Positions 1-60,895 of a stretch of DNA of 64,000 bases are shown here, piece by piece. The notes beneath the pieces were generated by a model that saw only the letters and a program-made list of their open reading frames with translations, did no database searches and was not told where the DNA came from. This DNA is from a virus: the IMG/VR virus record IMGVR_UViG_3300020429_000529, positions 134,762-198,761 of that record, one strand, 5' to 3'. The number at the start of each line of letters is the position of its first letter. Position 1 is the stretch's first letter. Both the position numbers and the translations under genes were made by a program.

Positions 1-314
1 ATGCGGCGGAGACGTTCGAGGAGCAGGCGGCTCAGAAGCTTGCTCAGTATCGAGGAAAGGTTGTGATTGTCGATAGGAACACCAAGGCGATCAGCTTCCA
101 GTACGATACGCCAGATGGGTCGTATGCCTCCGATGCAGTCATTGATACGAACAACAACTTCGTTGTCGCAGAAACAAGCTTTGTTTCCAACTCGGGCCGC
201 GTCGTCAAGCTCGACTCGTTCGGTAACGTCATCTTCCAGATCGGCGGCGGAACGTTCAGCAAGATCAACGACGTAAGGGCTCTTGTCAATGGAAACGTCT
301 TCATATCAACCTAA
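1..314 (+). CDS. Partial CDS (C-terminal fragment, frame 3 open from window start) of an NHL-repeat-like beta-propeller protein
   Basis: Frame 3 reads AAETFEEQAAQKLAQYRGKVVIVDRNTKAISFQYDTPDG... with no stop until TAA at 312-314. Motifs VVIVDRN...VVKLDSFGNVIFQIGG resemble NHL propeller blades. Confidence 0.4.
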   Translation, partial: AAETFEEQAAQKLAQYRGKVVIVDRNTKAISFQYDTPDGSYASDAVIDTNNNFVVAETSFVSNSGRVVKLDSFGNVIFQIGGGTFSKINDVRALVNGNVFIST

Positions 315-9214: not shown

Positions 9215-9220
9215 TAGTAG

Positions 9221-12240: not shown

Positions 12241-12243
12241 TAG

Positions 12244-16300: not shown

Positions 16301-19300
16301 ATTTCGCAGAGTTCGACTCGGCAACCGGGTGGAGCGATCCGTTCTTGCTTGTTTCTGATGAGTTTGGAGCGCAGAACCCTGATATCGCTGTTGATGGCAA
16401 CGGAATCATCTACATTGTTTTCGAGACGCTGCAGTCCGACTACACAGACCTTGCGGTCATTCAGAGAACAAGCGAAGGCTGGTCTGATCCGTATCTCATC
16501 GCAAGCGATGAGGGAGATTCCGTCAACCCTGCCATTGCTATCGATCGCAACAATACCGTATGCGTTGTTTGGGAGGATCATAGGTTCATTGAGCCTGAAA
16601 TCTTCTTCGCCCAAAGAGTCTCTTCAAACGGACAATGGGAGTCGAGCGCTTTCGGTCGCAAGGATTTGCGAATAACGAACAGTCCAGCAGGAGCGTACCG
16701 TCCAAGTATCGCTATATCTGGTCTGACCATTGCTGTTTCGTTCACTTCGTTCACGAAGGACGGAAACAGCCAAATCTATGTTGCCATTCATGGCGGCGAG
16801 GGCGGCAGAACCCTGACTTCGGCGGCGCAGTCAGCGCTGGCTCGCTACACTGATGCTGAAGTTGTTTCCATTCTTGCTGGCGAGATTCCCTTCGGAGAGG
16901 ACGCCAACATTGAGAGCATCTTTACTGACATTGGAGTCAACAACGGAACTGAAATTACAGGTTGGAACAGCAGCGCTCAGGGCGGTTCCGACATAGCTGT
17001 TTCTGCGCCCGATGCAGAGCAGGCTGACCATTCTGATATGGTCGTAGACAACAAGGGGCGTCTCTTTGTTACATGGCACGATGTTGTCAATGGAACATAC
17101 CAAGTTTTCGCGAGACGAGCAAACCCTCGATTCACTACTCCAACGGCGATTGCTCAACTCACCAATGCTAATCTTGACTCTCGCTACCCCAAGGCAACAT
17201 ACGAGGTTCTATCAGGAAGCATCTACATCGCCTTCGAAAGAGGCGAGGTCACAGCCGTTGATCCGTACAATCCTTATGGCGATCTTGATGACCAGAACAT
17301 CAGCGCAGGCGATGCAAAAATCATGCTTGCCCGCTATAACAATGAAGTTCAACGATGGGAGTCGAGCAATCAGACCCATACAACTTCCGGCGGCGGAGGT
17401 GGCTTTGACGTTGAGATCGAGGAAGGCGATACTCGTATAGCTCGTCGTCCTGTAGTCGCAAACCGTTCTCGAAACGGCGAGGTTCAGGTTTTGTATGAGG
17501 GGCTGCTAACTTCTGAGCAGGGCAAGGTTCTTGAGTTTAATCAGAACTTTGCAACCGCTCGAAGCGCTCGCTTTGATCTCACATGGGAGCCCATCTACAA
17601 CATCAACGATGGCGATCCCTATGTAGAAAAGGATGTTGATCTTAGCGGCAAGACTCCTCGTAAGGAGATCCGTTTCGGCGACTTCTCGAACACTGTTGGC
17701 GTCAAGTATATCATCAGCAGAGTTCGTTACTACTTGGGCGGAGCATACGGTCCATTCAATATCCGCTTTGTTTCTCCCGCAACGGTCAACATGCCAAATG
17801 CCAATGTCTTTGATACTGTTTCAAATAACAGAGGAGATGCATGGCTTGGAACGAACAAGGGTCTCTTCTACTTCAACAATGTCACAAACGAAGCGTTTGT
17901 TTTCTCGGGAGACGAGTTTGGTATTGATGGTCTTGAGATCAGAGGTATCGTCTTTGATCGAGACAGCAACATGTATCTCGCCACGAACAATGGCGTCTTT
18001 GTTAGCGTCGATCACGCCTTCTTCTACAAGTTGACTGGCGAGGGTATCCCCGACGAAGCAACGAGCATTGATACCGATAGCCAGAACAGGGTCTTCGTTG
18101 GTTCGTTCAACGGCGTTACGGTTATTCCGACTGCTGAAGCCGTTGCTCAGATCAAGACAACCAAAGAGAACGCAACAACCGAACGAACCATCGAGATCAC
18201 AACGGCTCAGATCCTCAATGAGGATGCTGGTCTTGTGTCAAACCGAGTCTATGTTGTCCGCATCGATGCAAACGATGTTGCATGGATTGGAACAAACAAG
18301 GGCCTTGTTCGTTACTCTCAGGGTCAGTTCTCGACGTTTACGATGGCAAACGGACTGTCTTCGAGCAAGATCAACGACATCGCTATCAAGAACACCGCTA
18401 TCCGATTCATCGCAACGACCGCTGGCGTTGACAAGATGACCGGCGTAACAGTGGAGAGACTCGACTTCGGAAACCTTGGAGCGCCGATCGTTGGCGTTGA
18501 GGACAAGAAGCCCGATGTCAGCATCCCCCAGTTCACAAATGTTCGTTCGGTACGATGGAAGCATCCCAATGTTCTCTACATCGCAACAACAAGCGTTGTA
18601 TATCAGGTTGAGTTTGTTGATGACGCTTTCCAGACCGAACAGATCAAGATCACGAAGTTCAACAGTCAAGACTTCTCTCTGACGACTATCACGCCAGAGC
18701 GAAACGATGACCTGCAGACATTCCGCATTGTCGGTCTTGAGGACAGGACCATTCCTGCAAATGTCCTGTATGAGGTCATACTAAACGGCAACAAGATCAC
18801 AAGAGGATTCCGTTTCTCGCCCAACAAGCAAGTCTTGAGGTTTGATTACCCGCTCAAGGCCAGCGACATTGTTCAGATCAATGTCCGCTTTGATGTTGAG
18901 GTCGTCAATGATTTCTCTCAGAATGGCGCTCAGCGATTCGCTGTTGGAAACAAGGCAACTCGTCTTGAGCGTTTGCTTTCCGCAAGAGGAAGCATCTATA
19001 CGCAAACGGGCGGCGATATCAATACGCTTCAGATCAACGACGAGACAACGGACCTGCCGTTTGATCGCATTACTGTCGATACTCAGCCTCCTGTTGGTCG
19101 AGTTGAGATTGGTCAGCAGTTGGATCAGACTGTTTTCCGGGTCAATGTACGTCAGATCGCAGAAGGCAGCGAGTATCTGCCGTTTGATGCAACTTCAGGT
19201 ATTGACAAGCTCATTATCTCGAACTTCACAAACTTCACAACAGACGGAGAAATTCCGCAAGAACCAATCCCGTTCGTAACAGCGGTTGATCACGATCTTG

Positions 19301-21801
19301 GTATTGTCTTTGATAGCATAACTCAGGAGTATGAGTTCCCTGCGGGCAAGGGCCGCTACCTATTCCGTTGGGATCGTCTTGATGGATCTCAGAGAATGGT
19401 TGCCGGTACTGGCGAGCCATCCAAGATCTACATGTATAACCCGACGACCGAGATGTGGGAGTTTAAGGCTGATCTCGATGACGGCAACCCCAATAGCTCG
19501 ATTGAGTTCATAACATCGTTCCAGGGTCGTTTGATTGTTGGTACTGGCATCCCTGACGGCATTGGTAAGGTCTGGACATCAACAGATGGCGAGAACTTCG
19601 TTGTCATCGGTACGCTTCCTGTTTCGCATGCGTATGCGGCAGAAGAGCTTGGAGCGAAGCTCTACATTGCTGCGGGCGGTAACATTGGACAGGTTTACGC
19701 CTGGGATGGTCAGACCTTTACTCTTGCATTCGACAACATCAGCGGTCATGTCTATGATCTGGTTCAGGCTGACGGCGAGCTATACGCAGGAACAGGTCGG
19801 GAAGGTCGAATCTATCGTCTTGACCCAACGAACTCGACGCAGCAAATTATCGATGCCAATTCTGATCCTGATATCATCAGCGTCGGTTTTGCAAACATCA
19901 ACAACAAGAGCTTTGTCTTCTCGGGCACGGGCAGCACAGCTACGCTTCGCCGCAGCACGCTACCAGATGGGGCGTTTGTCCACTCATTCCGAACTCTCAA
20001 TGCCCCTGTTTACGATCTTGAGAACGTTGGAGGCACGCTTTACGCAGCCATCGGCAACACGCTTTACGCCAACAAGAATGTTTGGAACGCTGAGTTCACC
20101 CATACCGAAGACATTAGGGACATCGCAAGAGGACTTGGAGATGTTCCATGGTTCGTCTCCGATAGCTTTGTTTTCAAGGTCGGAGAGGCTACGACTGTCA
20201 AGAACGTTTACATGAAGCTCATTGACCGAGCAGGTAATGAGACCAGTCTGTTTGTTGATGACGAGCAGACAACGCTTGATGAAAACCTATTTGACAGCGT
20301 AACTCTTGAGCAGCTTGTTGAGTTCACGAATCAGAACCGCATCCTTGAGGTTGATGGTTTTGGCAATGTTGTTCCTGCATCGACGATTTCCGGCGATGAG
20401 AGGTTCTATTCGGCTGACAAGATCGATGTCGAGCAGGGTAGCTACTTCAGCGAGATCTTCAATGGGACCAATAGCCTTGTTTCATGGGATCGCATCAACT
20501 GGGATGCAACGATACCCGAGAACACGACTATGACTATTTTCGTGAGAACAGGAGATTCTCGCGATGATATCTTGGACAACGATTTTGAGATTGAGGTAGA
20601 TGGAACAGAGGGAACGTATGATATCTCGTTCTTGAGCAAGCAATACATTCAGTTCAAGATCGTTATGACCAGCAAGATCCGAGGATTGAGTCCTTCGCTG
20701 CGAAGCGTTGTCATCCGAAGCATTGCAAGTCAGTCAACTCACTTCTACACAACAAACTTTGTCCTTCCAAGCAGGGTCAAGAGCGGTATCATTACGTCTA
20801 CCAAGATGATTCCTGTTGCTGCGGATGTCGTATTTGGCATCAATACCAACAACTCGGTTGACTTTGCTGAATACCAGATCATTGATGAGAATCGCATCTT
20901 CACAACGGCAGATGACCAGGTTGGGCGCAGCGTCCGAGTTGGCATCAAGCTGATTACTCCGAGCAAGGGCGAGGTTCTTTCGGAGGACTTTGGCGAGTAC
21001 GGGCCGTATGATACAGATCTCTTCTTCAACTCGATCAACTGGTCGTACACGAACTCTTCGGGAAGCGATGGGACATATCACTTCCGAGTCTCGTTCTACG
21101 AAAACTTCACATTGACAAACCCGATCTACACGGCCTACTCCGGTCAGAGTACCTCGGGCTTCAGCGACAATGGCGATGTTTTCCAGACGACGGGAGCGAT
21201 CATCGAAGCAGGAGATACCAAGGAGTTTTCCTTTGTTCCTGTTGGGGATACTCCGATTCGATGCAATACCTTCTACTTCCTTAAGGTCGAGGTACAGGAT
21301 GACCAGAGCGTTTGGACAACGGTCTTTGACAACCGATCATTTGTTGAGGCCTGCGGAACGTCGTTTGTCGATTCGATCGATTTCGACTTCACAAACTCTG
21401 GCATTACCGACACCTTCCACTACCGTATCAGGTTCTTCTCGAACCCAGAGCGTACAGAGCTTCTGACTACGGCATTCAGCGGAAACGACACAACGGGTTG
21501 GTCGGTTGACGGAGAAGACTTCCCTGCGGTAGGGTTGTCCGTCAACGGAGGCCAAACCAAGACGGTTCTTTACGAGCCGCCTGATCTGTCGGTATTTGAG
21601 GTCGGACTGACGTACTACCTCTCTATCGATGCGTTCGATGGAACCGAGTTTGTGAACAACAGCAACTCGTTTACTTTCCGCGCCCGAGACATCGATACCG
21701 GCATTTACTGCGGCCCATATGTCGATGTACCTGTAGTCAAGAACCTCTCGCTCATGTTTGAGCTTGAGGGCAACGAGTTTGTCACTCTAAAGCTTACCTG
21801 A
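13351..21801 (+). CDS. Giant structural protein (2816 aa) containing repeated W-x-NG beta-sandwich domains, a 7-blade TolB-like propeller and Reg_prop-type repeats
   Basis: GTG start with GAGGA upstream. Repeats IRWFKNGVHM and IKWYINNGERP. Propeller blades AVWHDDGDGSRRQLYFAEF, VVWEDHRFIEPEIFFAQR, QIYVAIHGG and VTWHDVVNGTYQVFARR. Reg_prop-like AWLGTNKGLFYF and VAWIGTNKGLVRYSQGQFSTF. Confidence 0.7.
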   Translation: MGISITNLYLNNVRFAPGTPPEVRFAPLTLNWDYETTSKTIRQNFYEVRIGTNDLNLGTDQYVPDTFRQPLTRSQADSWRLRTKFMDRGVLYFGQIRLVDNMNERSDWISFRFRVNTLPFVADVEISPAEPDVNDDLELSFNTFETTSNKIRWFKNGVHMTQFDDYTKISRDYLRYTDVWVAQVTPIDMLEEGPSIDSNAVMIQKAPPAASQVEIFPRNPNTYDILEASWSAVDETTGRPILNDKSKIKWYINNGERPEAENSKFVRFELVPGDEIFFELTPSDGIFDGPTVASEVVTIEDGGFRILGLRVDGISENLNVKSVNPTIEWDVIEPVARRSRYAFIRIGTAPQSGNIYETTIETFDEKFTVPDNVLKRGEDYFVTVAASDESDSFTNPVTTRFRVAGSLWDSSVSNSTGWTIEAALRVEGEGDNAGYQRISLSDGTAFAEIRFYLDRVTMLLGKSNAKTYALDMTVTRNFIITGQGSTIRVYQDNALILDGTDEFTQSAEERFIEIGSGAGAEAAGLYKRIVYTVNGSFDPITNSSIYTDISLESFINFVGGSVSDITEHQGDVLVAVNSRNTDESGTLYRIVETEMPILAATENIDNFPLVVNSMSGSPDDRFTFISHSKGASYFENFFLASFDINSIFESGYSPSVDNWELVQSIPFNATSYTSSGLVLDTTFGNVARVDDRLQFTTQTVSGLRFSWLWDFFTPSGTFDFSIYTQGSQLFVWSDSLGSALGSVSLLNRTLEDVRDELLDPNAAWNQTPYFFNIFVKVDILNGLNDQPASNLEDTALDGIDIGSPVTIFGDFLIVDPYDPDPYSKTAGGKWFYSHRRPGTPWFDRVSNSSGWTVDFDVTVETTEDNDRPSDIGNPDGFGLYVNDGAYYENLKFMTQEVYLNEADKSFLIDNTQANRYRITGQDDNIRVYVRRPNTIEYELLGETKMTESGTAAANAGRVAAASDDSGNIYAVWHDDGDGSRRQLYFAEFDSATGWSDPFLLVSDEFGAQNPDIAVDGNGIIYIVFETLQSDYTDLAVIQRTSEGWSDPYLIASDEGDSVNPAIAIDRNNTVCVVWEDHRFIEPEIFFAQRVSSNGQWESSAFGRKDLRITNSPAGAYRPSIAISGLTIAVSFTSFTKDGNSQIYVAIHGGEGGRTLTSAAQSALARYTDAEVVSILAGEIPFGEDANIESIFTDIGVNNGTEITGWNSSAQGGSDIAVSAPDAEQADHSDMVVDNKGRLFVTWHDVVNGTYQVFARRANPRFTTPTAIAQLTNANLDSRYPKATYEVLSGSIYIAFERGEVTAVDPYNPYGDLDDQNISAGDAKIMLARYNNEVQRWESSNQTHTTSGGGGGFDVEIEEGDTRIARRPVVANRSRNGEVQVLYEGLLTSEQGKVLEFNQNFATARSARFDLTWEPIYNINDGDPYVEKDVDLSGKTPRKEIRFGDFSNTVGVKYIISRVRYYLGGAYGPFNIRFVSPATVNMPNANVFDTVSNNRGDAWLGTNKGLFYFNNVTNEAFVFSGDEFGIDGLEIRGIVFDRDSNMYLATNNGVFVSVDHAFFYKLTGEGIPDEATSIDTDSQNRVFVGSFNGVTVIPTAEAVAQIKTTKENATTERTIEITTAQILNEDAGLVSNRVYVVRIDANDVAWIGTNKGLVRYSQGQFSTFTMANGLSSSKINDIAIKNTAIRFIATTAGVDKMTGVTVERLDFGNLGAPIVGVEDKKPDVSIPQFTNVRSVRWKHPNVLYIATTSVVYQVEFVDDAFQTEQIKITKFNSQDFSLTTITPERNDDLQTFRIVGLEDRTIPANVLYEVILNGNKITRGFRFSPNKQVLRFDYPLKASDIVQINVRFDVEVVNDFSQNGAQRFAVGNKATRLERLLSARGSIYTQTGGDINTLQINDETTDLPFDRITVDTQPPVGRVEIGQQLDQTVFRVNVRQIAEGSEYLPFDATSGIDKLIISNFTNFTTDGEIPQEPIPFVTAVDHDLGIVFDSITQEYEFPAGKGRYLFRWDRLDGSQRMVAGTGEPSKIYMYNPTTEMWEFKADLDDGNPNSSIEFITSFQGRLIVGTGIPDGIGKVWTSTDGENFVVIGTLPVSHAYAAEELGAKLYIAAGGNIGQVYAWDGQTFTLAFDNISGHVYDLVQADGELYAGTGREGRIYRLDPTNSTQQIIDANSDPDIISVGFANINNKSFVFSGTGSTATLRRSTLPDGAFVHSFRTLNAPVYDLENVGGTLYAAIGNTLYANKNVWNAEFTHTEDIRDIARGLGDVPWFVSDSFVFKVGEATTVKNVYMKLIDRAGNETSLFVDDEQTTLDENLFDSVTLEQLVEFTNQNRILEVDGFGNVVPASTISGDERFYSADKIDVEQGSYFSEIFNGTNSLVSWDRINWDATIPENTTMTIFVRTGDSRDDILDNDFEIEVDGTEGTYDISFLSKQYIQFKIVMTSKIRGLSPSLRSVVIRSIASQSTHFYTTNFVLPSRVKSGIITSTKMIPVAADVVFGINTNNSVDFAEYQIIDENRIFTTADDQVGRSVRVGIKLITPSKGEVLSEDFGEYGPYDTDLFFNSINWSYTNSSGSDGTYHFRVSFYENFTLTNPIYTAYSGQSTSGFSDNGDVFQTTGAIIEAGDTKEFSFVPVGDTPIRCNTFYFLKVEVQDDQSVWTTVFDNRSFVEACGTSFVDSIDFDFTNSGITDTFHYRIRFFSNPERTELLTTAFSGNDTTGWSVDGEDFPAVGLSVNGGQTKTVLYEPPDLSVFEVGLTYYLSIDAFDGTEFVNNSNSFTFRARDIDTGIYCGPYVDVPVVKNLSLMFELEGNEFVTLKLT
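16190..17560 (+). other. TolB/PD40-like beta-propeller domain (about 7 blades) inside the 13351..21801 giant protein
   Basis: Seven successive W/F-x-D/E-x-G-x(3-6)-IY/LY/VF blade motifs, spaced about 45-60 aa apart. Confidence 0.5.
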
Positions 21802-21802
21802 T

Positions 21803-45665: not shown

Positions 45666-45906
45666 TGCATTTCGCAAGCAAGCCGGTAGCTGGGACGACC
45701 AGCCTGGTTTTGTTGATCGCGATGTTGGTCCGGGCGGTATAGGAAACTCTCCGTCTGATCCGTCTGAAGAAGAGATCCTCGACGGCTTCGATCCCGAGAA
45801 GCGCAAGAAACGACGTAGAAAACGAAGAACCAAGCGGATTTACCAGCTTGGCATAGATGTGCCACTGTCTCCGCGAGAAGAAAGACAGCCCCTCATTACC
45901 CTATGA
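45646..45906 (+). CDS. Small protein with an Arg/Lys-rich cluster (KRKKRRRKRRTKR)
   Basis: ATG 45646 preceded by GGAGGAGA. Highly basic motif, possibly nucleic-acid binding. Ends in an ATGA-type overlap with the helicase gene. Confidence 0.35.
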   Translation: MRVLQTNAFRKQAGSWDDQPGFVDRDVGPGGIGNSPSDPSEEEILDGFDPEKRKKRRRKRRTKRIYQLGIDVPLSPREERQPLITL

Positions 45907-47438
45907 GCCGCGAAGTAACTCTCCGAATCACAAATGTCAATACATATGTCGAGTCCTCGCTTGATTCGATGACCTATCAGAACTTCAAGAAGGTCATGGG
46001 ATTCCGAGACGACAAGGCGATGTGGCGCGCGAGGAAAGTCCAAGAGAAGCTTGAGTCCCAAGGCAAGAATGCCAGTTGGGTCAAGAAATGGGACGGAACG
46101 CAGACGACCGTCGTGTATGACAAAAAGACCCGCAAGTCGTACTTCCCGACCGGCCTACTTTCTCGCGCAAGAGAGTTCTTCGGCGACTGCGAGTTCGATA
46201 TCAACTTGGTCGATCAGCGGACTCAGGTCCACCGTTCAACCGGCTACTCGATGAGCGAAGAGTACGAGCCGAGAGACTACCAAGGTAAGATCAGGGACGA
46301 CGCCTGCAACAAGGGCCGAGGCATCATCAAGATGGCGACGGGCGGAGGCAAGACCGCTACCGCTGCTTCGATCATCTCTGAGCTTGCCGTTGATCCAACC
46401 ATCTTCTATGTGACTTCCAAGGATCTGCTCAAGCAGGCTCGCGATGAGTTTCAGCGATTCATCTACCTGAACGGTTCCCCTGTCAAAGTAGGAACAGTCG
46501 GCGACGGTCAGTTTGATCTTCAACCGATCACGATCATGACGGTTCAGACAGCGATCCGAGCCCTCGGAGAGCGATGGACTCGTTTCGACGAAGAAGACGA
46601 TTCGGCCAAGACTGAGAAGCAGAAGCTCAACGAGAAGCAGAAGAAAGAACTCAAGGACTTCATTCGAGGCGCTGGCCTCATGATGTGCGACGAGGTTCAG
46701 CACTGGGCCGCAAAGACATGCCAGACTATCTCTTCTGCCTCTGAGTCCGCAAGATACCGCTTTGGCCTCTCTGCGACTCCTTGGCGAGATGAGGGCGATG
46801 ACATGCTGATCGATTCCTGCTTCGGCAAGGCGATCTGCGACATCTCTGCGTCGTTCTTGATTGATCGAGGCTATCTCATTAAGCCAACGATCTACTTTGT
46901 CCATCACAAGAAGCCAGGCATGGAGGGCGCTTATCCGACTGTCTACCAAGAAGGTATCGTAGAGAACCAGGAGCGTAACCTCTTGATCTCGAATATCTCT
47001 CGGAAGATGGTTGATAGCGGTCGCCAGGCTCTTATCTTGGTTCGCATCGTTGAGCATGGCAACATTCTTGAAGCGATGACGCCAGACAGCTTCTTCATTC
47101 ATGGCTCTCATACTGGTAAGCAGAGAGAAGCATGGATCGACAAGATGAGAAACCGAGAAGCTCCGATTACGATCGCTACTTCGATCTTCGACGAGGGCGT
47201 CGATGTCAAGTGTCTTGATTCGCTGGTGCTTGCTGGCAGCGGCAAGAGTCAGACGAGAGCGTTGCAGCGCGTAGGTCGAGTTCTTCGGCCATTTACCGAT
47301 AAGTCGAGTGGTTTCGTAAAGAAGGATGCGTTTGTTGTCGATTTCCATGACAACATGAAATACATGCTTGCGCATTCTCGAAAGCGCCGCAAGATTTACG
47401 ACACCGAGCCAGCCTTCGAGATCAAGGACTGGAAGTAA
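45903..47438 (+). CDS. SF2 DExH-box DNA helicase (UvsW/Res-subunit-like)
   Basis: Walker A MATGGGKTATAA, motif II MMCDEVQHW, motif III GLSATPWRD, motif V IATSIFDEGVDV and motif VI QRVGRVLR. Confidence 0.8.
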   Translation: MSREVTLRITNVNTYVESSLDSMTYQNFKKVMGFRDDKAMWRARKVQEKLESQGKNASWVKKWDGTQTTVVYDKKTRKSYFPTGLLSRAREFFGDCEFDINLVDQRTQVHRSTGYSMSEEYEPRDYQGKIRDDACNKGRGIIKMATGGGKTATAASIISELAVDPTIFYVTSKDLLKQARDEFQRFIYLNGSPVKVGTVGDGQFDLQPITIMTVQTAIRALGERWTRFDEEDDSAKTEKQKLNEKQKKELKDFIRGAGLMMCDEVQHWAAKTCQTISSASESARYRFGLSATPWRDEGDDMLIDSCFGKAICDISASFLIDRGYLIKPTIYFVHHKKPGMEGAYPTVYQEGIVENQERNLLISNISRKMVDSGRQALILVRIVEHGNILEAMTPDSFFIHGSHTGKQREAWIDKMRNREAPITIATSIFDEGVDVKCLDSLVLAGSGKSQTRALQRVGRVLRPFTDKSSGFVKKDAFVVDFHDNMKYMLAHSRKRRKIYDTEPAFEIKDWK

Positions 47439-48626: not shown

Positions 48627-49448
48627 TTGAGTAACTTGTTTGAAAACATCCTGTCTGACGCAAGCGAGTCTGTCAAAGAGTCCTCAGAGCGGTTTGCAGC
48701 GAAGAAGAATCCGGGAGATGAATGGGAAGTTACAGATGAGTTCCTTGGCTACAAGCGCAAGCGGGTAGCCGAATGGCGAACTCCTGACTTCTTCCACTTC
48801 TTTCTCGATATGTTCGAACGAAAGTTCGGCGAACCATTTGAGATCGCGCCTGCCGCTGGTCAGCAATCGATTCTACTCATCAAGGATGCCATCGCTAAAG
48901 AACTTGGCGAGAGACCATCTAACCAGGTTGTCAAAGACTACCTTGAATGGTTCATGGACAATGTAGCACACGGGCTGATCGTCAAGTACGGTTGCATGAA
49001 GATGAAGTTCTTCAAAGCCTCTTGGGAGATTGAGAGATTCCTGGATCTCTACAGCAAGATCAAGGATCGCAAGAAGCCAGAGAAGGTCTCATCGATTCTC
49101 TACACCGATGACAGCATGCAAGCCGTCTACATGTCAAGTCCCAAGAACTTCGTCCTCAAGTACGGTCTTGTCTTGTCCGTTGTTTGGCTTATGCGTCGGA
49201 AGAACATGACCGAGCAAGAGGCTGTTGGTATCGTGATGAAGCATGCGATCGATCTGGCGGATGACGGTCAATACAATGCCATTCTCTCGGCGACAGAGAA
49301 GCATACGCCCTATCCTCGCTGGTGCTATTTCCGATCGATCGACAGTATGCCTCGTGAGTTGACGATCGAAACCGGACAGTTCTTTGACGTTTTGTCCGTG
49401 TATTTCTCTGACCACGCGAGTCAGTTTCTCTTCCTCAAAGAGAAGTGA
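48627..49448 (+). CDS. Hypothetical protein
   Basis: 273-aa ORF in the conserved orientation. No recognisable motifs. Confidence 0.5.
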   Translation: MSNLFENILSDASESVKESSERFAAKKNPGDEWEVTDEFLGYKRKRVAEWRTPDFFHFFLDMFERKFGEPFEIAPAAGQQSILLIKDAIAKELGERPSNQVVKDYLEWFMDNVAHGLIVKYGCMKMKFFKASWEIERFLDLYSKIKDRKKPEKVSSILYTDDSMQAVYMSSPKNFVLKYGLVLSVVWLMRRKNMTEQEAVGIVMKHAIDLADDGQYNAILSATEKHTPYPRWCYFRSIDSMPRELTIETGQFFDVLSVYFSDHASQFLFLKEK

Positions 49449-49563
49449 AATAGCATCGCTGTTTGCGCCAGGCACGATTTGATTCGTGAGTTTGCCGATC
49501 CCTATGTGACGCTGAAATACGGTATGATAGTAGTCGCAATTGAAGTAGCCAATGGAGTCGTGA
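49449..49563 (+). promoter_or_regulatory. Largest intergenic gap in the window; candidate promoter/regulatory region upstream of the AAA ATPase gene
   Basis: 115 nt non-coding, AT-richer than its flanks. Contains TATGAT (49523-49528) and GGAG 8 nt before ATG 49564. No convincing -35 at canonical spacing. Confidence 0.25.
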
Positions 49564-52500
49564 ATGGCGGACCCTCTTGTCAAAGAAGCGGAGAAAGAGT
49601 TCAAGGCATGCGCCTCGGATGATTTCAACAATGACCTTCTTGCGCTTATCAAAAGTCGTCACCCTTTGGTCTTCATCTCTTCGCACGAAGAGAAGAGACT
49701 TCTTTCTCACCTGAACAATCTCTGCATTGCTCGCAACTACGATGCGTATGTCTGGGACTGCTTCGGCGGTCTTCGTCATCTTGCTACTGACAAGCAGGTT
49801 GATGCGGAGGATGGAAAATCCTCTCCCGACAAGAGCAATCCCGAAGCGGCTCTCAACTCGATCATTCGTCGCATAGAAAAGTCGCAGGCGGATATCAGGA
49901 GACGAAGAGAAGAAGGCAAGGAGCCCGCCAACAATGGCAGCATCTATGTTCTCCTGGACTTCTACAAGTATTTCGAGCGTTTGCAGCCCGCTATTCAGCG
50001 CAGGTTGAGACATCTTGCAACTCACGCCAAGGCTGCAAGCGTGATTATGACAGGTCCGTCTTATTCGAGCGTGCCCGCGCTCGACAAGGACATTGCTGTT
50101 CTTGACTTCCCGTACCCTAATGAGTACGAGATTGGTCGGGTTCTTGATACCTCGATCGAGATTGTTGAGAACAAGCAGGCCTTCACTCATATCAAGAACA
50201 TCCGCAACCATGTCAAGAAGCGGAGAGAAGACATCATCAATGCCGTCAAGGGCTTGACTCTTGCGGAGGCTCAATCGGCATACTTTAAGTCGCTGGTAAT
50301 GGGCGATCGTCTTGGCCTCGATCCGTTCGATGTCGAAACGATCATGAAAGAGAAGCGATCCATCATCAGCAAGAGCGATATTCTTGAGTTCATCGCTCCG
50401 AAGGTTTCGCTCGATGATGTCGGCGGCCTGGACAATATGACGGAATGGTTCAAGGCTCGACGATTGGCTTTCAGTCATGAAGCTCAGCAGTATGGCCTCC
50501 CGATGCCCAAGGGGGCTTTGCTGCTCGGGGTTTCTGGCGGAGGAAAGTCGCTAACCGCTAAGGGCGTTGCGAAGCAATGGAACATGCCTCTGCTTAGGCT
50601 TGATTTCGGAGCCTTGTTCAACTCTCTGGTCGGCGCTTCCGAGGAACGAAGCCGCATGGTCATTGACCTTGCTGAGGCCGTCGCTCCTTGCGTGTCCGGC
50701 GATACTGTCATTCAGGACATCAACGGTAATGAGTACGTTATCGAGGATCTTCTCAATGACGATGGAGAACTGAAGAACAACGAACTCTACATCTTTGGAT
50801 TCAACGAAGAAACGAAGAAACTTGAGCCTACCAGAGTTCAGGGCGTTATACGCCATGCGAGCAAGAAAGAGATGATCCGCATCTCGACTGCTCATTCTTC
50901 GATTGAAGTCACCAAGGACCATCGGGTTATGGTCAATCGAGATGGCGACCTTCACTGGGTTGAGGCTCAAGAGATTGACAAGGGCGATCTGGTTATGGCT
51001 CCCAAGCTCTTCATGCGCCGCTGCAAGAAGCCCGATTGGAAGTCGGCCATCTCGATCCCTTACGACTCAATGAAGGGACAAGAAAAGGGTCATCACATTC
51101 TCTTCTCCAAGAAGAAGGGACACTTCTGCGTCGTCAACATGTTCAACGGGTTCAATCCCTCTGAGTTGTTCTACATGGTTGGCCTCATTGATGGCGGAGG
51201 CTGGATTGATGCAGAGACCGGAAAGGTCTCGATCAGCCTTGACAACTGGGAAATGACTCACAATTCGACAACGCTTTTTTGCGAGATGTTCGGAGTTGAG
51301 CCGCTGATCGAAGGCAACAAGCGGACTGGTTTTCGTATCGAGACAGAGAACAAGATCGCTGGCGACATTCTCTCGTTTGCCAGAGAGAACTTGATGAGTC
51401 AGGAAGATGAATACATTAGTCACTACCTGAGCGGCGTCATGGACGCGAGCGGCGACATTTACGCCGACAAGAAGTTCCCCAAAGTCATCTTCAATGTCTC
51501 GAATGATTTTGGGGTTCAGGATCGGGTCGCCAAGGCGATGCATGTCTTTGGCATTCTTGCTCCTAAGAGAAGCAAGTCTTCGATTGTGATCGATACGAAC
51601 TTCGATATGGAGAGCGCTGCGATCGCTCTCGATCTTCGGTACGAACCGCTTGGTAGCGCCTTGGCTGGTATTGTGAGAAACCGTCTCGGCAAGGACAACA
51701 GATCGATTGGTTACAAGTTCGGTAGCTCGTTGACGAAGGACAGAGATCGTTTCGATTTGTCGCGAGCAGACTTCAGCTTGCCTTCTCAGACCATCGCCTC
51801 GTATGAGAGAGGCAAGACGGTCCCGTTTGACAAGGCGTATGAGATCGCTGAGAAGATCGCTAAGGTTGCTCCGAGCGAGGTTGCGATCAAGGATACCTGC
51901 GTTGAGCTTATGCAGAGCGATCTGGTCGGCGTTGCTGTAACCAAGATCGAAGAAATCGGCAGCAGATACGCTTACGATCTTGCTTGCGAGAAGAATCACA
52001 ACTTCATCGGCAACAACATTCTGGTCCATAACTGCGTTCTTTGGTGGGACGAGATCGAAAAGGGTCTGTCTGGCGGCGTAGGGCAGGGCTCTGGCGACTC
52101 GGGCACTACGAAGCGAGTCATCTCTACGTTCCTCACATGGATGCAAGAGAAGACGGCACCTGTCTTTGTAGTCGCCACGGGCAACAATGTCCATGATATC
52201 CCGCCCGAGTTCATGCGCGCAGGTCGTTTCGATGAGACTTTCTGGATTGATCTTCCTGGCAAGGATGGTCGAGAGCAGATCTTCCATATCCTGCTCGGTC
52301 GCAAGGGAAGAGACCCGAAGACCTTTGACATCGAACGTCTTGCTGAGGAAACAAAGGGATGGACAGGAGCCGAGATCGAAAAAGCGATCCATGATGGCAT
52401 GTTCATTTCATTTGCTGACAACAAGAGAACTCTCACTACAGAAGACATCTCTGTTGCTATCTCTAAGATCAGGCCTCTTTCTGAGACCCGAAAAGAAGAA

Positions 52501-52611
52501 TTGCAACAGATGAGGACATGGGCTAAGGAGCGTTGCACGTTTGCCAACACGGACGTTGATGGCGATGGCAATCCTGATGTTCCTGATATCGATCTTCACG
52601 GGAAGAAGTAA
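49564..52611 (+). CDS. Classical AAA ATPase (Cdc48/FtsH-type ATPase module) interrupted by an intein
   Basis: Walker A LLGVSGGGKSLTAKG. After the intein, Walker B CVLWWDEIEKG, sensor-1 VVATGNN and SRH/Arg-finger IPPEFMRAGRFDETFWIDLP. The predicted spliced product is about 567 aa. Confidence 0.75.
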   Translation: MADPLVKEAEKEFKACASDDFNNDLLALIKSRHPLVFISSHEEKRLLSHLNNLCIARNYDAYVWDCFGGLRHLATDKQVDAEDGKSSPDKSNPEAALNSIIRRIEKSQADIRRRREEGKEPANNGSIYVLLDFYKYFERLQPAIQRRLRHLATHAKAASVIMTGPSYSSVPALDKDIAVLDFPYPNEYEIGRVLDTSIEIVENKQAFTHIKNIRNHVKKRREDIINAVKGLTLAEAQSAYFKSLVMGDRLGLDPFDVETIMKEKRSIISKSDILEFIAPKVSLDDVGGLDNMTEWFKARRLAFSHEAQQYGLPMPKGALLLGVSGGGKSLTAKGVAKQWNMPLLRLDFGALFNSLVGASEERSRMVIDLAEAVAPCVSGDTVIQDINGNEYVIEDLLNDDGELKNNELYIFGFNEETKKLEPTRVQGVIRHASKKEMIRISTAHSSIEVTKDHRVMVNRDGDLHWVEAQEIDKGDLVMAPKLFMRRCKKPDWKSAISIPYDSMKGQEKGHHILFSKKKGHFCVVNMFNGFNPSELFYMVGLIDGGGWIDAETGKVSISLDNWEMTHNSTTLFCEMFGVEPLIEGNKRTGFRIETENKIAGDILSFARENLMSQEDEYISHYLSGVMDASGDIYADKKFPKVIFNVSNDFGVQDRVAKAMHVFGILAPKRSKSSIVIDTNFDMESAAIALDLRYEPLGSALAGIVRNRLGKDNRSIGYKFGSSLTKDRDRFDLSRADFSLPSQTIASYERGKTVPFDKAYEIAEKIAKVAPSEVAIKDTCVELMQSDLVGVAVTKIEEIGSRYAYDLACEKNHNFIGNNILVHNCVLWWDEIEKGLSGGVGQGSGDSGTTKRVISTFLTWMQEKTAPVFVVATGNNVHDIPPEFMRAGRFDETFWIDLPGKDGREQIFHILLGRKGRDPKTFDIERLAEETKGWTGAEIEKAIHDGMFISFADNKRTLTTEDISVAISKIRPLSETRKEELQQMRTWAKERCTFANTDVDGDGNPDVPDIDLHGKK
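50689..52032 (+). mobile_element. Intein (448 aa) with LAGLIDADG-type homing endonuclease motifs, inserted immediately upstream of Walker B of the AAA ATPase
   Basis: Starts at Cys (APCVSGDTVIQ) and ends ILVHN followed by extein +1 Cys (CVLWWDE). Internal LAGLIDADG-like motifs MVGLIDGGGWID and LSGVMDASGDIY. Confidence 0.7.
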
Positions 52612-52626
52612 AGATCACTTTGTTGG

Positions 52627-53505
52627 GTGGAGTCTTTATTCAACCGGCTTGTAGAAGCCGAAGGTGTTGCTATGAGGGATATCAGTAGAACCATAAACCT
52701 CTACACCGGAAAGCTGCAAGAGACTTGTCAGTTTCACGAAGGCGAGCGAGAATGTTCTCGGGAAGAAGGTTGCGTCTGTCGTAAGCTCGGCGAAATCAAA
52801 GCTCTGACTCAAGAGCTAATCGAACCGATCTATCGCAACTCAACCTTTGATTCATTTACAGGTAAGCTGCCAGACGGTCAGAGGGCGAAGCCATTTAGAG
52901 ATGATCCGAATCGGATCAATGAAGTGAAGAAACAGCTATGGAAGTATCTCTACGGAGATACGCCTATGGTCCCCGGCGGAAGCCGAGAAGACTACAACCG
53001 AATATCCATCATTGACAAGAGGCACCGAGAAGGCGCTTCTGTTGTGATTCATGGCAAGTCGGGCGTCTACAAGAAAGAGCAGCACGGCGGTTATCGCTAC
53101 GAGCATGTTCCAACTGGTAAGACTTTGCTTGCTTCGATCATCATGCTCGATGCGATCAATCGCAACAAGCATCCCTCGGGCAAGAACTGGACTTACGATA
53201 AGGTTTCATTCCTTGAGCTACGACAAGCTCTCAAGTCCAAAGATGATAGCATCTATGACATGCAAGACGTTGACTGGTTGTTGATTGACGATCTTGTAGA
53301 AATAGCAGAGGAAGGTTCCAGCAAGAAGGCTTCTGGCTGGACGAAAGAAGTGTTCGATGCGTTTCTGATTGATCGCATTCAGAATCACAAGCCTACGATC
53401 CTGGTATGTAACTTCGACATCGAGGATATTTCTGTCGAAGAGCGTATGGGTCTGGCCTTCCAAAAAATACTGTCAAGCCATACTACGCATGAGATCAAGG
53501 TGTAA
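52627..53505 (+). CDS. Putative helicase loader / DnaC-IstB-like ATPase (low confidence) with an N-terminal Cys cluster
   Basis: Sits immediately upstream of dnaB. Split P-loop-like SVVIHGKSG...VPTGKTLLASII, Walker-B-like VDWLLIDDL and N-terminal CQFHEGERECSREEGCVC. GTG start; an alternative ATG lies at 52672. Confidence 0.35.
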   Translation: MESLFNRLVEAEGVAMRDISRTINLYTGKLQETCQFHEGERECSREEGCVCRKLGEIKALTQELIEPIYRNSTFDSFTGKLPDGQRAKPFRDDPNRINEVKKQLWKYLYGDTPMVPGGSREDYNRISIIDKRHREGASVVIHGKSGVYKKEQHGGYRYEHVPTGKTLLASIIMLDAINRNKHPSGKNWTYDKVSFLELRQALKSKDDSIYDMQDVDWLLIDDLVEIAEEGSSKKASGWTKEVFDAFLIDRIQNHKPTILVCNFDIEDISVEERMGLAFQKILSSHTTHEIKV

Positions 53506-55094
53506 TGAGGGATAGGAAAGAAACACAAGAGAAGATACTGCATATTCTGCTCACCACGCCGGATTCGGTGAGCGCTCTCGTTGCGCATCGCATCGGCCCT
53601 GAGCATTTTGACCCGATCTTTCGTCCGCTTCTGCATGGCATTTTCCATGCTCAGTCTAAGGGGGCGAAGCTTACTGAAGTCGGCTACATTGACTTCATTG
53701 AAAAGGCCGTTACTTCAGGTAAGTATTCGGAGTGGGTCGGCAAGAAGGTTGACAGTCCTAAGCAGGCTGTTCTTCGAGAAAAGGCCATGCTGTTTGAGGC
53801 GTTCGGTCTTCAGACAGCCGAAACCGATGACATCGAAGTCTACATCGATCGCCTCAACGAAGATCGAATCAGAGAGCAATCTGAACGACTCTTCCAGAAG
53901 TTCAAGGAAGATGCCAAGAAGAACTATCCCGAAGCGATTGGTCAACTGTCTGAAGGTCTTGAGAAGATCTCGGTCTCAACAAGCGAGAACAAGTCCAACT
54001 GGGTGTACCTGAACGAAGATAAAGAGAGCTTCGTTGGCAAGCTACGAGCCGAGAGAGAAAACCCGTCTGAACGTTTGTTGACAGGAATTTCTGAGCTTGA
54101 TGATTCGATTACGGTCGGATTGCAACCAGGATCTCTGACTCTGTTCGTTGCTGATGTTGGCGGCTTCAAGTCAACGATGATGCTCAACGTTGCGCTGAAT
54201 GTATGGCGCAAGTATCACAAAGATGTTCTGTTTATCAGCCTTGAGATGCCAGCGGATATGCTTGAAGCAAAGATCGCTGCAAGAGAGACTGGTATCGCGA
54301 ACGAGAAACTGAGCAAGCCAGAACTTTTGACCGACGCCAATCTTGATCGCATCGAGAAAGAATGGGACAACTTCCATTCCATGCCGCATCGCTTCGTTAT
54401 CGAAGATACCGAGGAACGCCTCAAGGTTTCAGACATCAAAGCTAAGATCGAGAAGAACATCTCTTTCTTCAAGCCCCGCTTGGTAGTTATTGACTATATC
54501 ACGATTCTTTCGCCAGAGAAAAGCTTTGCGAACAAGGCATCTCACGAATGGGTAGGTCATTGGTGTAAGGATCTGCGTCAGCTTGGACGCAAGCATGGGT
54601 TTGCCATCATCTCCGCTGCTCAGCTTGGACGAGAGGCCATCAAGCGTCTTCGTTCTCAGAAAGAGGGCAAGCAGACTGTTGGTTCGGATGACCTTCGAGG
54701 CTCGCATGACTTCTCGGCAGACTCCGACAACATCTATGCTCTTGTACCTGATCCGAGCCAGCCTCAGCAGCAGCTTCAGTTGTTCTGTATCAAGGCTCGT
54801 TACGGCAAGAAGACATTCGGAGGCGTCAATCGAGCGATGCTGAATGTCAATCCTGATCTGTGTCGCATATCAGGGGCAACGGATGCGGCATGGTCTTCTG
54901 ATGACTTTGATGATGGCTCTGACGATGCCGAGTTTATCAAGAGACAAGAGAGCGCAAGCACGGGAATGTCGTTTGAAGATCAAGATGACCTGGATCTCGA
55001 TGGAGACCCCTCTCCTTCTGTTGTAACGAAGAAGCCCAAGAAGGAAAAGAAGAAGAAATCAACTGGTACATTGGAGTTTGACGAGTTCGACTAA
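53505..55094 (+). CDS. dnaB: DnaB-family replicative DNA helicase
   Basis: DnaB N-domain-like start. RecA-fold motifs GGFKSTMMLNVALNV, ISLEMPADML, VVIDYITILS, AIISAAQLGREA and DLRGSHDFSADSDNIYAL. Acidic then Lys-rich C-terminal tail. Confidence 0.75.
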   Translation: MRDRKETQEKILHILLTTPDSVSALVAHRIGPEHFDPIFRPLLHGIFHAQSKGAKLTEVGYIDFIEKAVTSGKYSEWVGKKVDSPKQAVLREKAMLFEAFGLQTAETDDIEVYIDRLNEDRIREQSERLFQKFKEDAKKNYPEAIGQLSEGLEKISVSTSENKSNWVYLNEDKESFVGKLRAERENPSERLLTGISELDDSITVGLQPGSLTLFVADVGGFKSTMMLNVALNVWRKYHKDVLFISLEMPADMLEAKIAARETGIANEKLSKPELLTDANLDRIEKEWDNFHSMPHRFVIEDTEERLKVSDIKAKIEKNISFFKPRLVVIDYITILSPEKSFANKASHEWVGHWCKDLRQLGRKHGFAIISAAQLGREAIKRLRSQKEGKQTVGSDDLRGSHDFSADSDNIYALVPDPSQPQQQLQLFCIKARYGKKTFGGVNRAMLNVNPDLCRISGATDAAWSSDDFDDGSDDAEFIKRQESASTGMSFEDQDDLDLDGDPSPSVVTKKPKKEKKKKSTGTLEFDEFD

Positions 55095-59491: not shown

Positions 59492-60895
59492 ATGAGTAAG
59501 CGCCGAATTACGAACGCAGATTTTTGCCACCTGCACAACCATACTGAATACTCGTCCTTCGATGGATTGAACAAGATTGGCGAGTTCCCTCTTGCTGCGC
59601 GCAAGAAGGGCTTTAGAGCCCTGGCGATGACCGATCACGGTAACATCGGCGGGGCTGTTAAGTTCATGCAGAACTGCCTTGCGCCTGCAAAGGATGAAGA
59701 AGGCAACGAGATCCCTCCCATCAAGCCTATCGTTGGCTGCGAGTTCTATCTCGCCAAAGACAGGCACGCCCATTCGTCAAAAGAACAAACCGACAAACGC
59801 CGAGGCAATCGTCACCTTGTTTTGATGGCGAAGAACTGGACTGGCTACCAGAACCTATGCCGTCTTTCTGAGCATAGCTGGACCGAGGGCGTCTACATTG
59901 ATCCTCGCATCGACCTTGAACTGCTCAACAAGTATCATGAGGGACTAATCTGTACCTCCGCATGCTTGAGCAGCGTCGTCAACGCCAACCTCTTGCATGA
60001 TCGCTATGACCAAGCCAAGAAAGCCGTAACGGTACTCAAGGACATCTTCAAGGACGACTTCTATCTCGAAGCGATGTATCACGGCATCGATGCTGAGGGA
60101 ATGATTATACCTGACATTCTGAAGCTTGCTGAAGAGATGGATGTCACTTGCTATTGCACGAACGATTGCCATTACTGCGAGAAATGTCAAGGCAAGTCTC
60201 AAGAGTTGCTTATGGCGATGTCTACATCTCGTTGCATGAACGATCCGAATCGATTGCACTTTCCGTATCATGAGTTTTACCTGAAGTCTGCTGCAGAGAT
60301 GGCTCAGGCTTTTGGTTCGCATCCTCATCTTCTGACAAATACGATGGGCGTTGCAGAGAAGATCGATTCAGACAACATCTTGACCAACATGACAAGCGGT
60401 ATGCGTTTGCCGAGATTCGACATCCCCGAGGGTCATAGTTCGCCTCACGAATACCTCAGACATCTTGCGTATGAGGGCATGAGGAATCTTGGTTGGGATA
60501 CGAGCGAGAAGCACAAGGCTCGTCTTGAGATGGAGCTTGGCGATATTTGGGTTGCTTGGGAGAACAACAAGTACGACTTTGCAACGTACCTGTTGATTGT
60601 TCGAGATTACATGCAAGAGGCTCGCAATCGAGGCATTTTGACCGGATGCGGTCGAGGCTCGGGCTACGGAAGCGTTCTTCTCCGTTGCTTGGGGATTACC
60701 TACGGACCCGATCCTCTTGAGTACGATTTGCTGTGGGAGCGTTTCCTCGGCTTCGACGACAAGTTCTTCGTTCAAGAGAGCGACTTCGGCCTTGATGAAG
60801 CCAAGACCGCCGTTGACATCGTTGCGGATGCTGCTGATGTCGATGACGAGGCGAGAGAGGTTGATGACGATCTCGGAGGGGTAGACAGGTACTAA
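59492..60895 (+). CDS. dnaE: DNA polymerase III alpha (DnaE) N-terminal fragment: PHP domain plus start of palm, ending in a non-homologous acidic tail
   Basis: PHP motifs FCHLHNHTEYS and ALAMTDHGNIGG. Palm motif GCGRGSGYGSVLLRCLGIT...DPLEYDLLWERFL aligns to E. coli GPGRGSGAGSLVAYALKIT...DPLEFDLLFERFL. The ORF then diverges and stops. Confidence 0.8.
   Translation: MSKRRITNADFCHLHNHTEYSSFDGLNKIGEFPLAARKKGFRALAMTDHGNIGGAVKFMQNCLAPAKDEEGNEIPPIKPIVGCEFYLAKDRHAHSSKEQTDKRRGNRHLVLMAKNWTGYQNLCRLSEHSWTEGVYIDPRIDLELLNKYHEGLICTSACLSSVVNANLLHDRYDQAKKAVTVLKDIFKDDFYLEAMYHGIDAEGMIIPDILKLAEEMDVTCYCTNDCHYCEKCQGKSQELLMAMSTSRCMNDPNRLHFPYHEFYLKSAAEMAQAFGSHPHLLTNTMGVAEKIDSDNILTNMTSGMRLPRFDIPEGHSSPHEYLRHLAYEGMRNLGWDTSEKHKARLEMELGDIWVAWENNKYDFATYLLIVRDYMQEARNRGILTGCGRGSGYGSVLLRCLGITYGPDPLEYDLLWERFLGFDDKFFVQESDFGLDEAKTAVDIVADAADVDDEAREVDDDLGGVDRY

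Follow-up and report, generated by a model that had tools for sequence, protein, structure and literature searches.

The 64,000-nucleotide stretch of DNA analyzed here (the window) comes from the IMG/VR virus record IMGVR_UViG_3300020429_000529 and lies on a 498,610-bp metagenomic contig. On its plus strand, positions 49564..52611 hold a gene whose product we read as the precursor of a AAA ATPase interrupted by an intein. The gene starts with ATG, has a GGAG 6 nt 5' of the start, and comprises 1015 codons and a stop codon; all its features given below are on the same strand. The precursor is 1015 amino acids (aa) long, with 448 aa belonging to the intein and 567 aa to the joined exteins. The identical precursor protein is encoded on 13 contigs, 11 of which are 0.2-1 Mb in length. 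A previous interpretation of this locus, made from the letters and their open reading frames (ORFs) and hereafter called the sequence-only reading, had proposed a phage-encoded ATPase split by an intein; the ORF, the quoted motifs and both lengths are present just as it described them. The phage origin is supported by tail-fibre-J-like and phage replication PHROG matches and by relatives in IMG/VR.

The intein (precursor aa 376-823; 50689..52032) comprises a Hint splicing domain, a degenerate LAGLIDADG domain and a helix-turn-helix-like (HTH-like) module, as seen with Pfam and TIGR profiles, a structural model and Foldseek. The profile search, which the sequence-only reading had suggested as a check, yielded matches of the precursor to Pfam Intein_splicing (PF14890, E=1.3e-20, also scored at 1.7e-21), to the intein N-terminus TIGR01445 (E=1.6e-10) and to the intein C-terminus TIGR01443 (E=1.2e-6). 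The junctions are AVAP|C on the N-side (aa 375/376) and VHN|C on the C-side (aa 823/824), and a junction of the (H/K)N/C type is kept in the embedded homologues. The class-1 splice set is complete. It includes Cys1 in block A, the first splice nucleophile (50689..50691; present in 25/25 embedded homologues), the TxxH motif T75-K-D-H78 in block B (50911..50922), blocks F and G ('YAYDLACEKNHNFIGNNILVHN'; 51967..52032) with the block-F Asp430 and His447-Asn448, and Cys+1, the first residue of the 192-aa C-extein (52033..52608).

The intein was modelled by AlphaFold2 from 23 homologues (pLDDT 91.4, pTM 0.91). In a Foldseek search against PDB, the whole chain matched the TliVMA intein (7qss, E=8e-18), PI-PfuI (1dq3), PI-TkoII (2cw7), the PhoVMA intein and PI-SceI, the ends of the intein matched mini-inteins and the Hedgehog Hint domain, and its middle matched I-DmoI, I-AniI, E-DreI and WhiA (3hyi). 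Like the known endonuclease-bearing inteins (PI-PfuI 1dq3, TliVMA/PhoVMA 7qss/7qst, PI-TkoII 2cw7, PI-SceI 1vde; whole-chain matches with E=8e-18 to 2e-8, best TM ~0.65), the window intein has a two-motif LAGLIDADG domain inside the Hint domain and belongs to class 1, with a Cys1 nucleophile and a terminal HN. Unlike them, it lacks the catalytic acids, carries an extra HTH-like module and resides in a phage AAA protein, and the identity is 10-15%. The profiles, the class-1 residues and the Foldseek matches all bear out the earlier call of an intein running from Cys1 to HN/Cys+1.

Pfam AAA (PF00004) matches the precursor in two separated stretches (E=2.4e-21). When residues 376-823 are removed in silico, which had also been suggested as a check, a single stretch is restored, covering positions 2-130 of 131 (E=1.5e-25) and followed by AAA_lid_3; the spliced 567-aa sequence is modelled with pLDDT 90.7. 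The conserved motifs are distributed over both extein halves: Walker A GVSGGGKS (aa 322-329; 50527..50550) lies upstream of the intein, and Walker B VLWWDE (aa 825-830, with VLWWDEIE at 825-832; 52036..52053), sensor 1 ATGNN (aa 871-875), the second region of homology (SRH) RAGRFD with both Arg (aa 885-890; together with sensor 1, 52174..52233) and the Pfam AAA lid domain PF17862 (52324..52452) lie downstream of it. In 64 homologues, Walker A (G322, G325, G327, K328 and S329), Walker B (D381 and E382 in extein numbering), sensor 1 (T424 and N426) and the SRH arginines (R437 and R440) are invariant. The extein matches the phrog_8638 profile (568 positions, 'unknown function') with E=1e-127; of two matched stretches, the best aligns aa 10-377 with profile positions 10-367.

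The extein thus has the features of the classical AAA clade, namely Walker A and B, the sensor-1 Asn, two Arg in the SRH, and AAA_lid_3, and the profile of the extein family matches D2 of Cdc48/p97 with E ~1e-78. These sequence features place the active module, from ~aa 275 of the extein onward, among the AAA domains of the classical clade. The sequence-only reading had called it a classical AAA unfoldase. The first part of this name holds, given the two SRH Arg and AAA_lid_3, whereas 'unfoldase' is a hypothesis, because pore loop 1 ('SLVG', 50623..50634) reads Leu-Val-Gly, with aliphatic Leu-Val in the place of Trp-Phe of p97 D2.

The intein follows Pro375, with which helix alpha2 ends, and precedes the Cys that opens the Walker B strand, one residue before hhhhDE. 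Intein-free homologues are contiguous across the site ('…AE.(V/L)(A/S)PC(I/V)LW.DEIEK'; 'APCILWIDEIEK'). The +1 Cys thus belongs to the family's own sequence, and joining of the exteins would be scarless. The position of the junctions, the intein-free homologues and published surveys agree with the earlier statement that this is a typical intein site: in bacteria, archaea and mycobacteriophages, inteins cluster in P-loop ATPases at Walker A or Walker B (PMC4760082, PMC5050341). The mycobacteriophage TerL1-e intein (at Walker B) and the MCM, RFC and PolIII-gamma inteins (PMC5050341, PMC4760082) follow, like the window intein, this rule of insertion into conserved P-loop motifs of replication or packaging proteins, and their host families are different.

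Closer counterparts occupy the very same site. Among the best 120 relatives, ten have an insert exactly there, including the 153-aa mini-intein P0096, and all these inserts are homologous to that of the window protein (29-43% identity). Homologous inteins at the same Pro|Cys were found in the cellular FtsH P0154 (1085 aa), in D2 of the Cdc48-like protein P0139 (1249 aa), and in the more distant phage-family proteins P0141 and P0167, several of them with the canonical Asp in both LAGLIDADG motifs. The identical Pro|Cys site in FtsH, Cdc48-like and phage AAA proteins points to a homing site common to AAA families. The P0154 and P0139 inteins share homology with the whole of the window intein (21-30% identity) and have the same HTH-like module; they differ from it in having the canonical Asp in both motifs and in their hosts, which are cellular proteases and segregases and not phrog_8638 proteins. 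With these orthologous AP|C-site inteins of cellular classical AAA proteins we group the CDC48 inteins of Anaeramoeba and prokaryotes, described as weakly similar to bacterial and archaeal inteins at orthologous sites (PMC10710043). In addition, a second intein is present inside Walker A (GxPG|C…HN|(C/S)GKS) in the relatives P0127, P0132 and P0142; the window protein has the Walker B-site intein only, and a dedicated search found no second intein of this family within the window.

The closest relative of the precursor, on the IMG/VR contig L006 (N-extein 58% identical), also carries the intein. The closest intein-free alleles are only ~46-49% identical, and no recent gain or loss polymorphism is visible. 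The GC content of the intein (0.50), its GC3 and its codon-usage index (0.76) are within the range of the exteins and of 18 other window genes; hence its composition is like that of the host gene and gives no sign of recent acquisition. Neither tblastn of the intein alone nor megablast of the precursor gene against 50,697 cultured-phage records produced a match, which means that there is no close relative in the cultured-phage set at the level of nucleotides or of the intein.

The two LAGLIDADG-like motifs pointed out in the sequence-only reading are 'MVGLIDGGG' (51175..51201) and 'LSGVMDASG' (51427..51453). In the model, the LAGLIDADG helices span residues 157-170 and 240-254 and are each followed by beta strands, as in the pseudo-dimer fold. 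In canonical LAGLIDADG enzymes, position 8 of the motif (D20 of I-CreI) binds the catalytic metal, and a substitution equivalent to that of I-CreI D20 abolishes cleavage. In the window intein, these positions, at which both model helices end, are Gly170 in motif 1 and Ser254 in motif 2, so that neither motif has a catalytic acid. The same is seen more broadly: position 8 is non-acidic in both motifs in 15 of the 24 endonuclease-bearing embedded homologues as well as in the window, and acidic in both in six of the 24 (Asp, in the more distant ones) and in none of the window's clade. Judging from this position, the LAGLIDADG domain is most likely a DNA-binding, non-cleaving remnant. The earlier description therefore stands as regards the presence of two motifs and the fold, and fails as regards the implied working homing endonuclease, since both position-8 acids are missing.

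The LAGLIDADG core is followed by a three-helix HTH-like module (intein aa ~343-395; 'LSRADFSLPSQTIASYERGKTVPFDKAYEIAEKI'; 51715..51873) with model helices 346-354, 366-373 and 380-393; from the model, we infer a resemblance to the XRE-type helix-turn-helix. Pfam detects neither a LAGLIDADG nor an HTH domain in the window intein, even at E<=10. Among the 23 intein homologues, PF14528 is detectable in seven, and HTH_31 is found, weakly, in one. Foldseek matched the intein to full-length WhiA (3hyi), which comprises both LAGLIDADG and HTH. Like the middle part of the intein, WhiA combines a dead LAGLIDADG domain with an HTH for DNA binding; unlike the intein, it has no Hint domain.

Some homologues of the intein have no exteins at all. 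A word-indexed search with the window intein gave P0121 alone, and the family was recovered by an exhaustive HMMER search. We compared splice residues in 25 inteins embedded at the site, 24 of them with an endonuclease domain, and in eight extein-less homologues. Cys1, the block-B Thr and His, the block-F Asp, (His/Lys)-Asn and Cys+1 are all retained in 25/25 embedded inteins. By contrast, the extein-less homologues retain Cys1 in 2/8 cases, the block-B His in 2/8, and the terminal Asn in 1/8. Hence, splice residues decay only in the absence of exteins, and this implies selection on these residues wherever there is something to splice, including the window. No other sequence-level evidence speaks as strongly as this contrast for selection on the splice residues of the window intein.

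The closest relatives of the window intein (37-40% identity over all 448 residues) are all extein-less (P0121, P0123, P0124 and P0126; 456-478 aa); P0137, P0138, P0140 and P0157 are more distant extein-less ORFs. Intact ORFs of this kind, syntenic to window positions 49564..52611, were found at L004:1201-2634, L009:5952-7388, L011:4835-6259, L013:5001-6377 and L012:90-1460. The gene order in these sister phages is ResIII, D12 methylase, a protein of ~273-306 aa, IF3, the intein-only ORF (440-478 aa), a DnaC-like loader, DnaB, and DnaG Zn-ribbon/primase. As the extein-less ORF is separated from its neighbors by at most 20-45 nt on each side, there is no room for exteins. The loci come from different samples and different assemblers. 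The extein-less ORFs are 29-42% identical to each other and have acquired no stops; being still open at this divergence, they must be long-lived. Copies from different samples are identical in nucleotide sequence, and the other pairs are too divergent for dN/dS.

In the neighbor-joining tree of inteins, the free P0121, P0123 and P0124 group with the embedded inteins of the window and L006 in 95 of 100 bootstraps, and the free P0137 falls within the embedded clade of L007, P0128 and P0001; the tree is built on divergent sequences, and the placement of P0137 has no separate bootstrap. The neighboring genes follow the same pattern. The DnaB and the loader of L013 (free, P0137) are 67.6% and 57% identical to those of L007 (embedded), and ~42% and ~35% identical to those of the other free loci, which are closer to the window and L006. 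The congruence between the intein tree and the DnaB identities argues for vertical descent and not for recent transfer. The simplest reading of these sequence comparisons would be at least two losses of both exteins, with the intein ORF surviving each time. Splice residues that have decayed in a still intact extein-less ORF suggest that the intein protein may be retained for its own sake, and the mostly non-acidic position 8 in the extein-less ORFs would favor a useful protein over a selfish free-standing element. A search of the literature available to us gave no description of such extein-less phage inteins. The nearest parallels are yeast HO and WHO (PMC7282813), free-standing intein-derived genes that keep an active nuclease; in the ORFs described here, the catalytic acids are mostly absent.

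Given these data, the product of the gene is very probably the precursor of a phage AAA ATPase, broken between alpha2 and the Walker B strand by a class-1 cis-splicing intein that has a most likely non-cleaving LAGLIDADG domain and is inherited vertically. The splicing steps, the inactivity of the unspliced ATPase, the hexamer and the absence of cleavage are deduced from the known biochemistry of inteins and AAA proteins. The Hint domain would fold once the precursor is translated, and an N-S acyl shift would take place at Cys1, helped by Thr75 and His78. The thioester would then be handed to Cys+1, cyclization of Asn448, helped by His447, would free the intein, and an S-N shift would link Pro375 to Cys with no scar. 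Before splicing, the Walker A and Walker B halves are 448 residues apart, and hence no ATPase activity is expected of the precursor. Splicing would yield a free 448-aa intein protein and a 567-aa ATPase consisting of a nucleotide-free D1-like pseudo-AAA domain and one active classical AAA module, presumably a hexameric remodelling motor. Its sequence features suggest that the window intein is old, vertically inherited and splicing-competent, and that its homing function has probably decayed.

Several points weigh against this interpretation. The ATPase is lost in the sister phages and hence is dispensable there. Splicing itself is a prediction from sequence. Pore loop 1 is not aromatic, as both the window protein and the family consensus have 'SLVG' and not 'MWFG' of Cdc48 D2. 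Finally, the endonuclease is considered dead by the motif position, and a non-canonical active site is possible, the fold and the HTH-like module being maintained.

The first and the second of these points would also fit if the insert were a non-splicing relic or a fixed domain, the AAA gene being permanently interrupted and its product non-functional or two-lobed. We find this highly improbable. The splice-critical residues are intact in the window and in all 25 embedded homologues and decayed where exteins are absent, and the family shows no variation in the ATPase motifs of either extein half. Moreover, a 448-aa domain between alpha2 and the core strand beta3 is incompatible with the AAA fold, which is adopted by the modelled spliced sequence. 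The last point leads to another alternative, that the intein is still an active homing element with a non-canonical active site, and that the extein-less ORFs are free-standing homing genes that replaced the AAA gene, similarly to WHO/HO. Both the endonuclease fold and the HTH-like module are retained throughout the clade, the distant same-site inteins with Asp in both motifs indicate that the lineage was once active, and the filling of one site in FtsH, Cdc48-like and phage AAA genes implies past homing across hosts; besides, the WHO elements (PMC7282813) show that genes derived from inteins can home without splicing. However, with position 8 non-acidic in both motifs of the window intein and most embedded homologues, the intein tree congruent with the DnaB identities, the composition matching the host gene and the nearest intein-free alleles so divergent, we consider active homing improbable.

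A more serious possibility concerns the excised intein. Selection could act on this protein itself, domesticated to bind specific DNA sequences through a WhiA-like dead LAGLIDADG domain and an HTH, the AAA gene being merely its carrier; the protein might act in the replication module, e.g. at an origin or in a regulatory role just 5' of the helicase loader gene. This agrees with the intact intein-only ORFs with decayed splice residues in the syntenic slot of the sister phages, with their remaining open at such divergence, with the loss of exteins on at least two occasions as read from the intein tree and the DnaB identities, and with the Foldseek match of the degenerate LAGLIDADG and HTH to WhiA. 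On the other hand, the DNA-binding role is proposed by analogy and from the model, and the HTH is supported by the model, one weak Pfam match and the Foldseek match to WhiA. The intein may have persisted as a selfish element and not for any usefulness, the tree is subject to the reservations given above for divergent sequences and for P0137, and the contigs with extein-less ORFs are partial, so that a copy of the AAA gene may be present elsewhere in these genomes. On balance, we regard such domestication as possible, though doubtful, and prefer the interpretation of the gene as the precursor of a spliced ATPase.

The spliced ATPase has a second domain. The sequence-only reading had described a 375-aa N-terminal domain of no known function; in fact, 375 aa is the entire N-extein including Walker A, and the domain that has no assigned function spans only ~aa 1-270. 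At the level of the model, this N-terminal domain (~aa 1-272; 49564..50379) is a degenerate D1-like AAA fold with a helical lid that has lost the P-loop (beta1 'LVFISSHEEKR') and has a Walker-B-like 'LLDF'. No Pfam or PDB sequence match was found for aa 1-263, and the profile-profile comparison of the N-domain with the C-terminal AAA module was not significant (E=0.28). The comparison list for the N-domain included Rix7 (437) and Pex1 (461-474). Similar to type II tandem AAA proteins, the chain contains two AAA-fold domains, but it has neither a D1 recognizable by sequence with Walker A nor an N-terminal adaptor domain. In particular, compared to NVL, Rix7, Pex1/Pex6 and p97/VAT, the D1-like domain of the window protein lacks both Walker A and the ability to bind nucleotide, a substrate or adaptor domain of the double-psi barrel type is missing from the N-terminus, pore loop 1 is aliphatic, and the protein is ~560 aa long. 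The pore loop 'SLVG' resembles the non-aromatic D1 loop 'KLAG'.

The claim that classical AAA proteins are uncommon in phages does not hold for this family, which has a PHROG of its own. With the cluster-O mycobacteriophage 'AAA-ATPase' (Corndog gp96), the extein shares ~31% identity along 91% of its own length, and other phrog_8638-type relatives are encoded by Rhizobium, Agrobacterium, Rhodobacter and Aeromonas phages. The extein matches 122 cultured-phage records, and in 35 of these the match covers 80% or more of the query; all listed matches are in one contiguous piece. Thus, the cultured-phage members of phrog_8638, with Corndog gp96 among them, belong to the same family as the extein, are all intein-free and have no assigned function. 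In a large protein collection, 6018 of 8000 scored candidates had E<=1e-10, and the best ones were 45-49% identical and mostly ~550 aa long. In IMG/VR, a count with no more than two short peptide patterns gave at least 236 viral stretches that encode a relative; their contigs range from 6 kb to 548 kb, and many exceed 200 kb. A jumbo-phage survey also has homologues of BCS1, ClpA, ClpX and MoxR (PMC7824862).

An assignment to the IetA/IteA anti-phage ATPase was rejected: NF042959 scored 60.8 bits at the cutoff of 510, and PADLOC IetA matches were limited to the generic AAA module (aa 305-543). In the Rhizobium phage RHph_I4 (L002 6956-10278), the AAA homologue is followed by a hypothetical gene and then by genes for DUF1257 (Ycf35-like) and DUF2997. 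Together with the JGI name 'SpoVK/Ycf46/Vps4', this provides an unconfirmed lead to Ycf46/Ycf35 of cyanobacteria and plastids. With low confidence, we suggest that the ATPase may serve the replication module as an accessory factor that remodels proteins and that some lineages can do without.

The replication module starts at ~42.5 kb of the window with genes for a Mre11-type exonuclease, a ResIII helicase, a D12 methylase, a 273-aa protein and the AAA+intein precursor, and continues with a DnaC-like loader, DnaB, a DnaG zinc-ribbon protein, methylases and a split DNA polymerase III alpha. The upstream neighbor of the precursor gene (48627..49448, +) encodes the 273-aa protein, which has no family match and is syntenic with the AAA/intein slot in all related loci; downstream are genes for the helicase loader (52627..53505, +) and the DnaB-like helicase (53505..55094, +). 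The order of the 273-aa protein, AAA+intein, loader and DnaB is repeated in the IMG/VR jumbo contigs L006 and L007, which were covered by the gene-order check; L008, the third contig retrieved, was left out. In most relatives, an IF3 gene lies directly 5' of the AAA/intein slot (L007:4350-4928, L009:5409-5912, L011:4306-4812, L013:4493-5017). It is absent there from L006 and from the window, where the gap is 115 nt (49449..49563). Scans for promoters and terminators around the precursor gene gave nothing exceeding the shuffled expectation. Long antisense ORFs lie opposite the gene (49435..50478, -, 347 aa; 51067..52392, -, 441 aa); we assume that they are by-products of the coding-strand composition.

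Further downstream, DNA polymerase III alpha is split into a 467-aa part with PHP and the N-terminal region (59492..60895) and, after a methyltransferase and small ORFs, a second part of 678 aa that carries the finger and HHH domains (from ~62506 to the end of the window), in agreement with the split 'minimal PolIII alpha' of jumbo phages (PMC7824862). The ResIII helicase of the window (45903..47438, 511 aa) is intein-free. In L013, the 651-aa ResIII helicase (L013:1584-3539) has an intein (Hint, Intein_splicing) between ResIII and Helicase_C, and the 793-aa gene upstream (L013:1-11) has an intein with a LAGLIDADG_3 domain; phages of the L013 type are thus intein-rich. The first part of the window (1397..39845) is occupied by giant plus-strand ORFs of 2605, 2816, 1578, 1175 and 3261 aa, interspersed with smaller ones (368-527 aa) and with glycosyltransferase genes on both sides (283..1440 and 39863..41758). 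The 3261-aa product contains Laminin_G_3 and Kelch/beta-propeller domains, and the 1578-aa product and the neighboring 478-aa protein contain tail-fibre-J-like segments. The giant products are probably host-recognition or adhesion proteins of a huge phage.

An intein-interrupted AAA gene is a familiar arrangement, but here the endonuclease center looks dead, and the sister phages keep the intein as a gene without exteins. The phrog_8638 ATPases join the P-loop ATPases that carry inteins beside catalytic motifs, with an allele linked to the same-site inteins of the FtsH/Cdc48 type. This is useful for intein catalogues and for the annotation of huge-phage genomes, and is not surprising as such. 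It also provides the first structural reading of the phrog_8638 family, as a pseudo-D1 domain and one active AAA module with an aliphatic pore loop. The embedded inteins, with all splice residues kept, and the extein-less ones, with the fold kept and the residues lost, form a natural experiment on selection in inteins. The locus is a testable candidate for the domestication of a viral intein, and bears on the question whether inteins are ever more than selfish. We hold only tentatively that the intein protein may itself be functional, the likeliest task being sequence-specific DNA binding in the part of the replication module that precedes the helicase loader gene. Such a role would explain why at least two huge-phage lineages have independently dropped both exteins and kept the intein. 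If true, it would be a counterpart, in viruses of prokaryotes, of the domestication of HO from the VMA1 intein, with an intein outliving its host gene.

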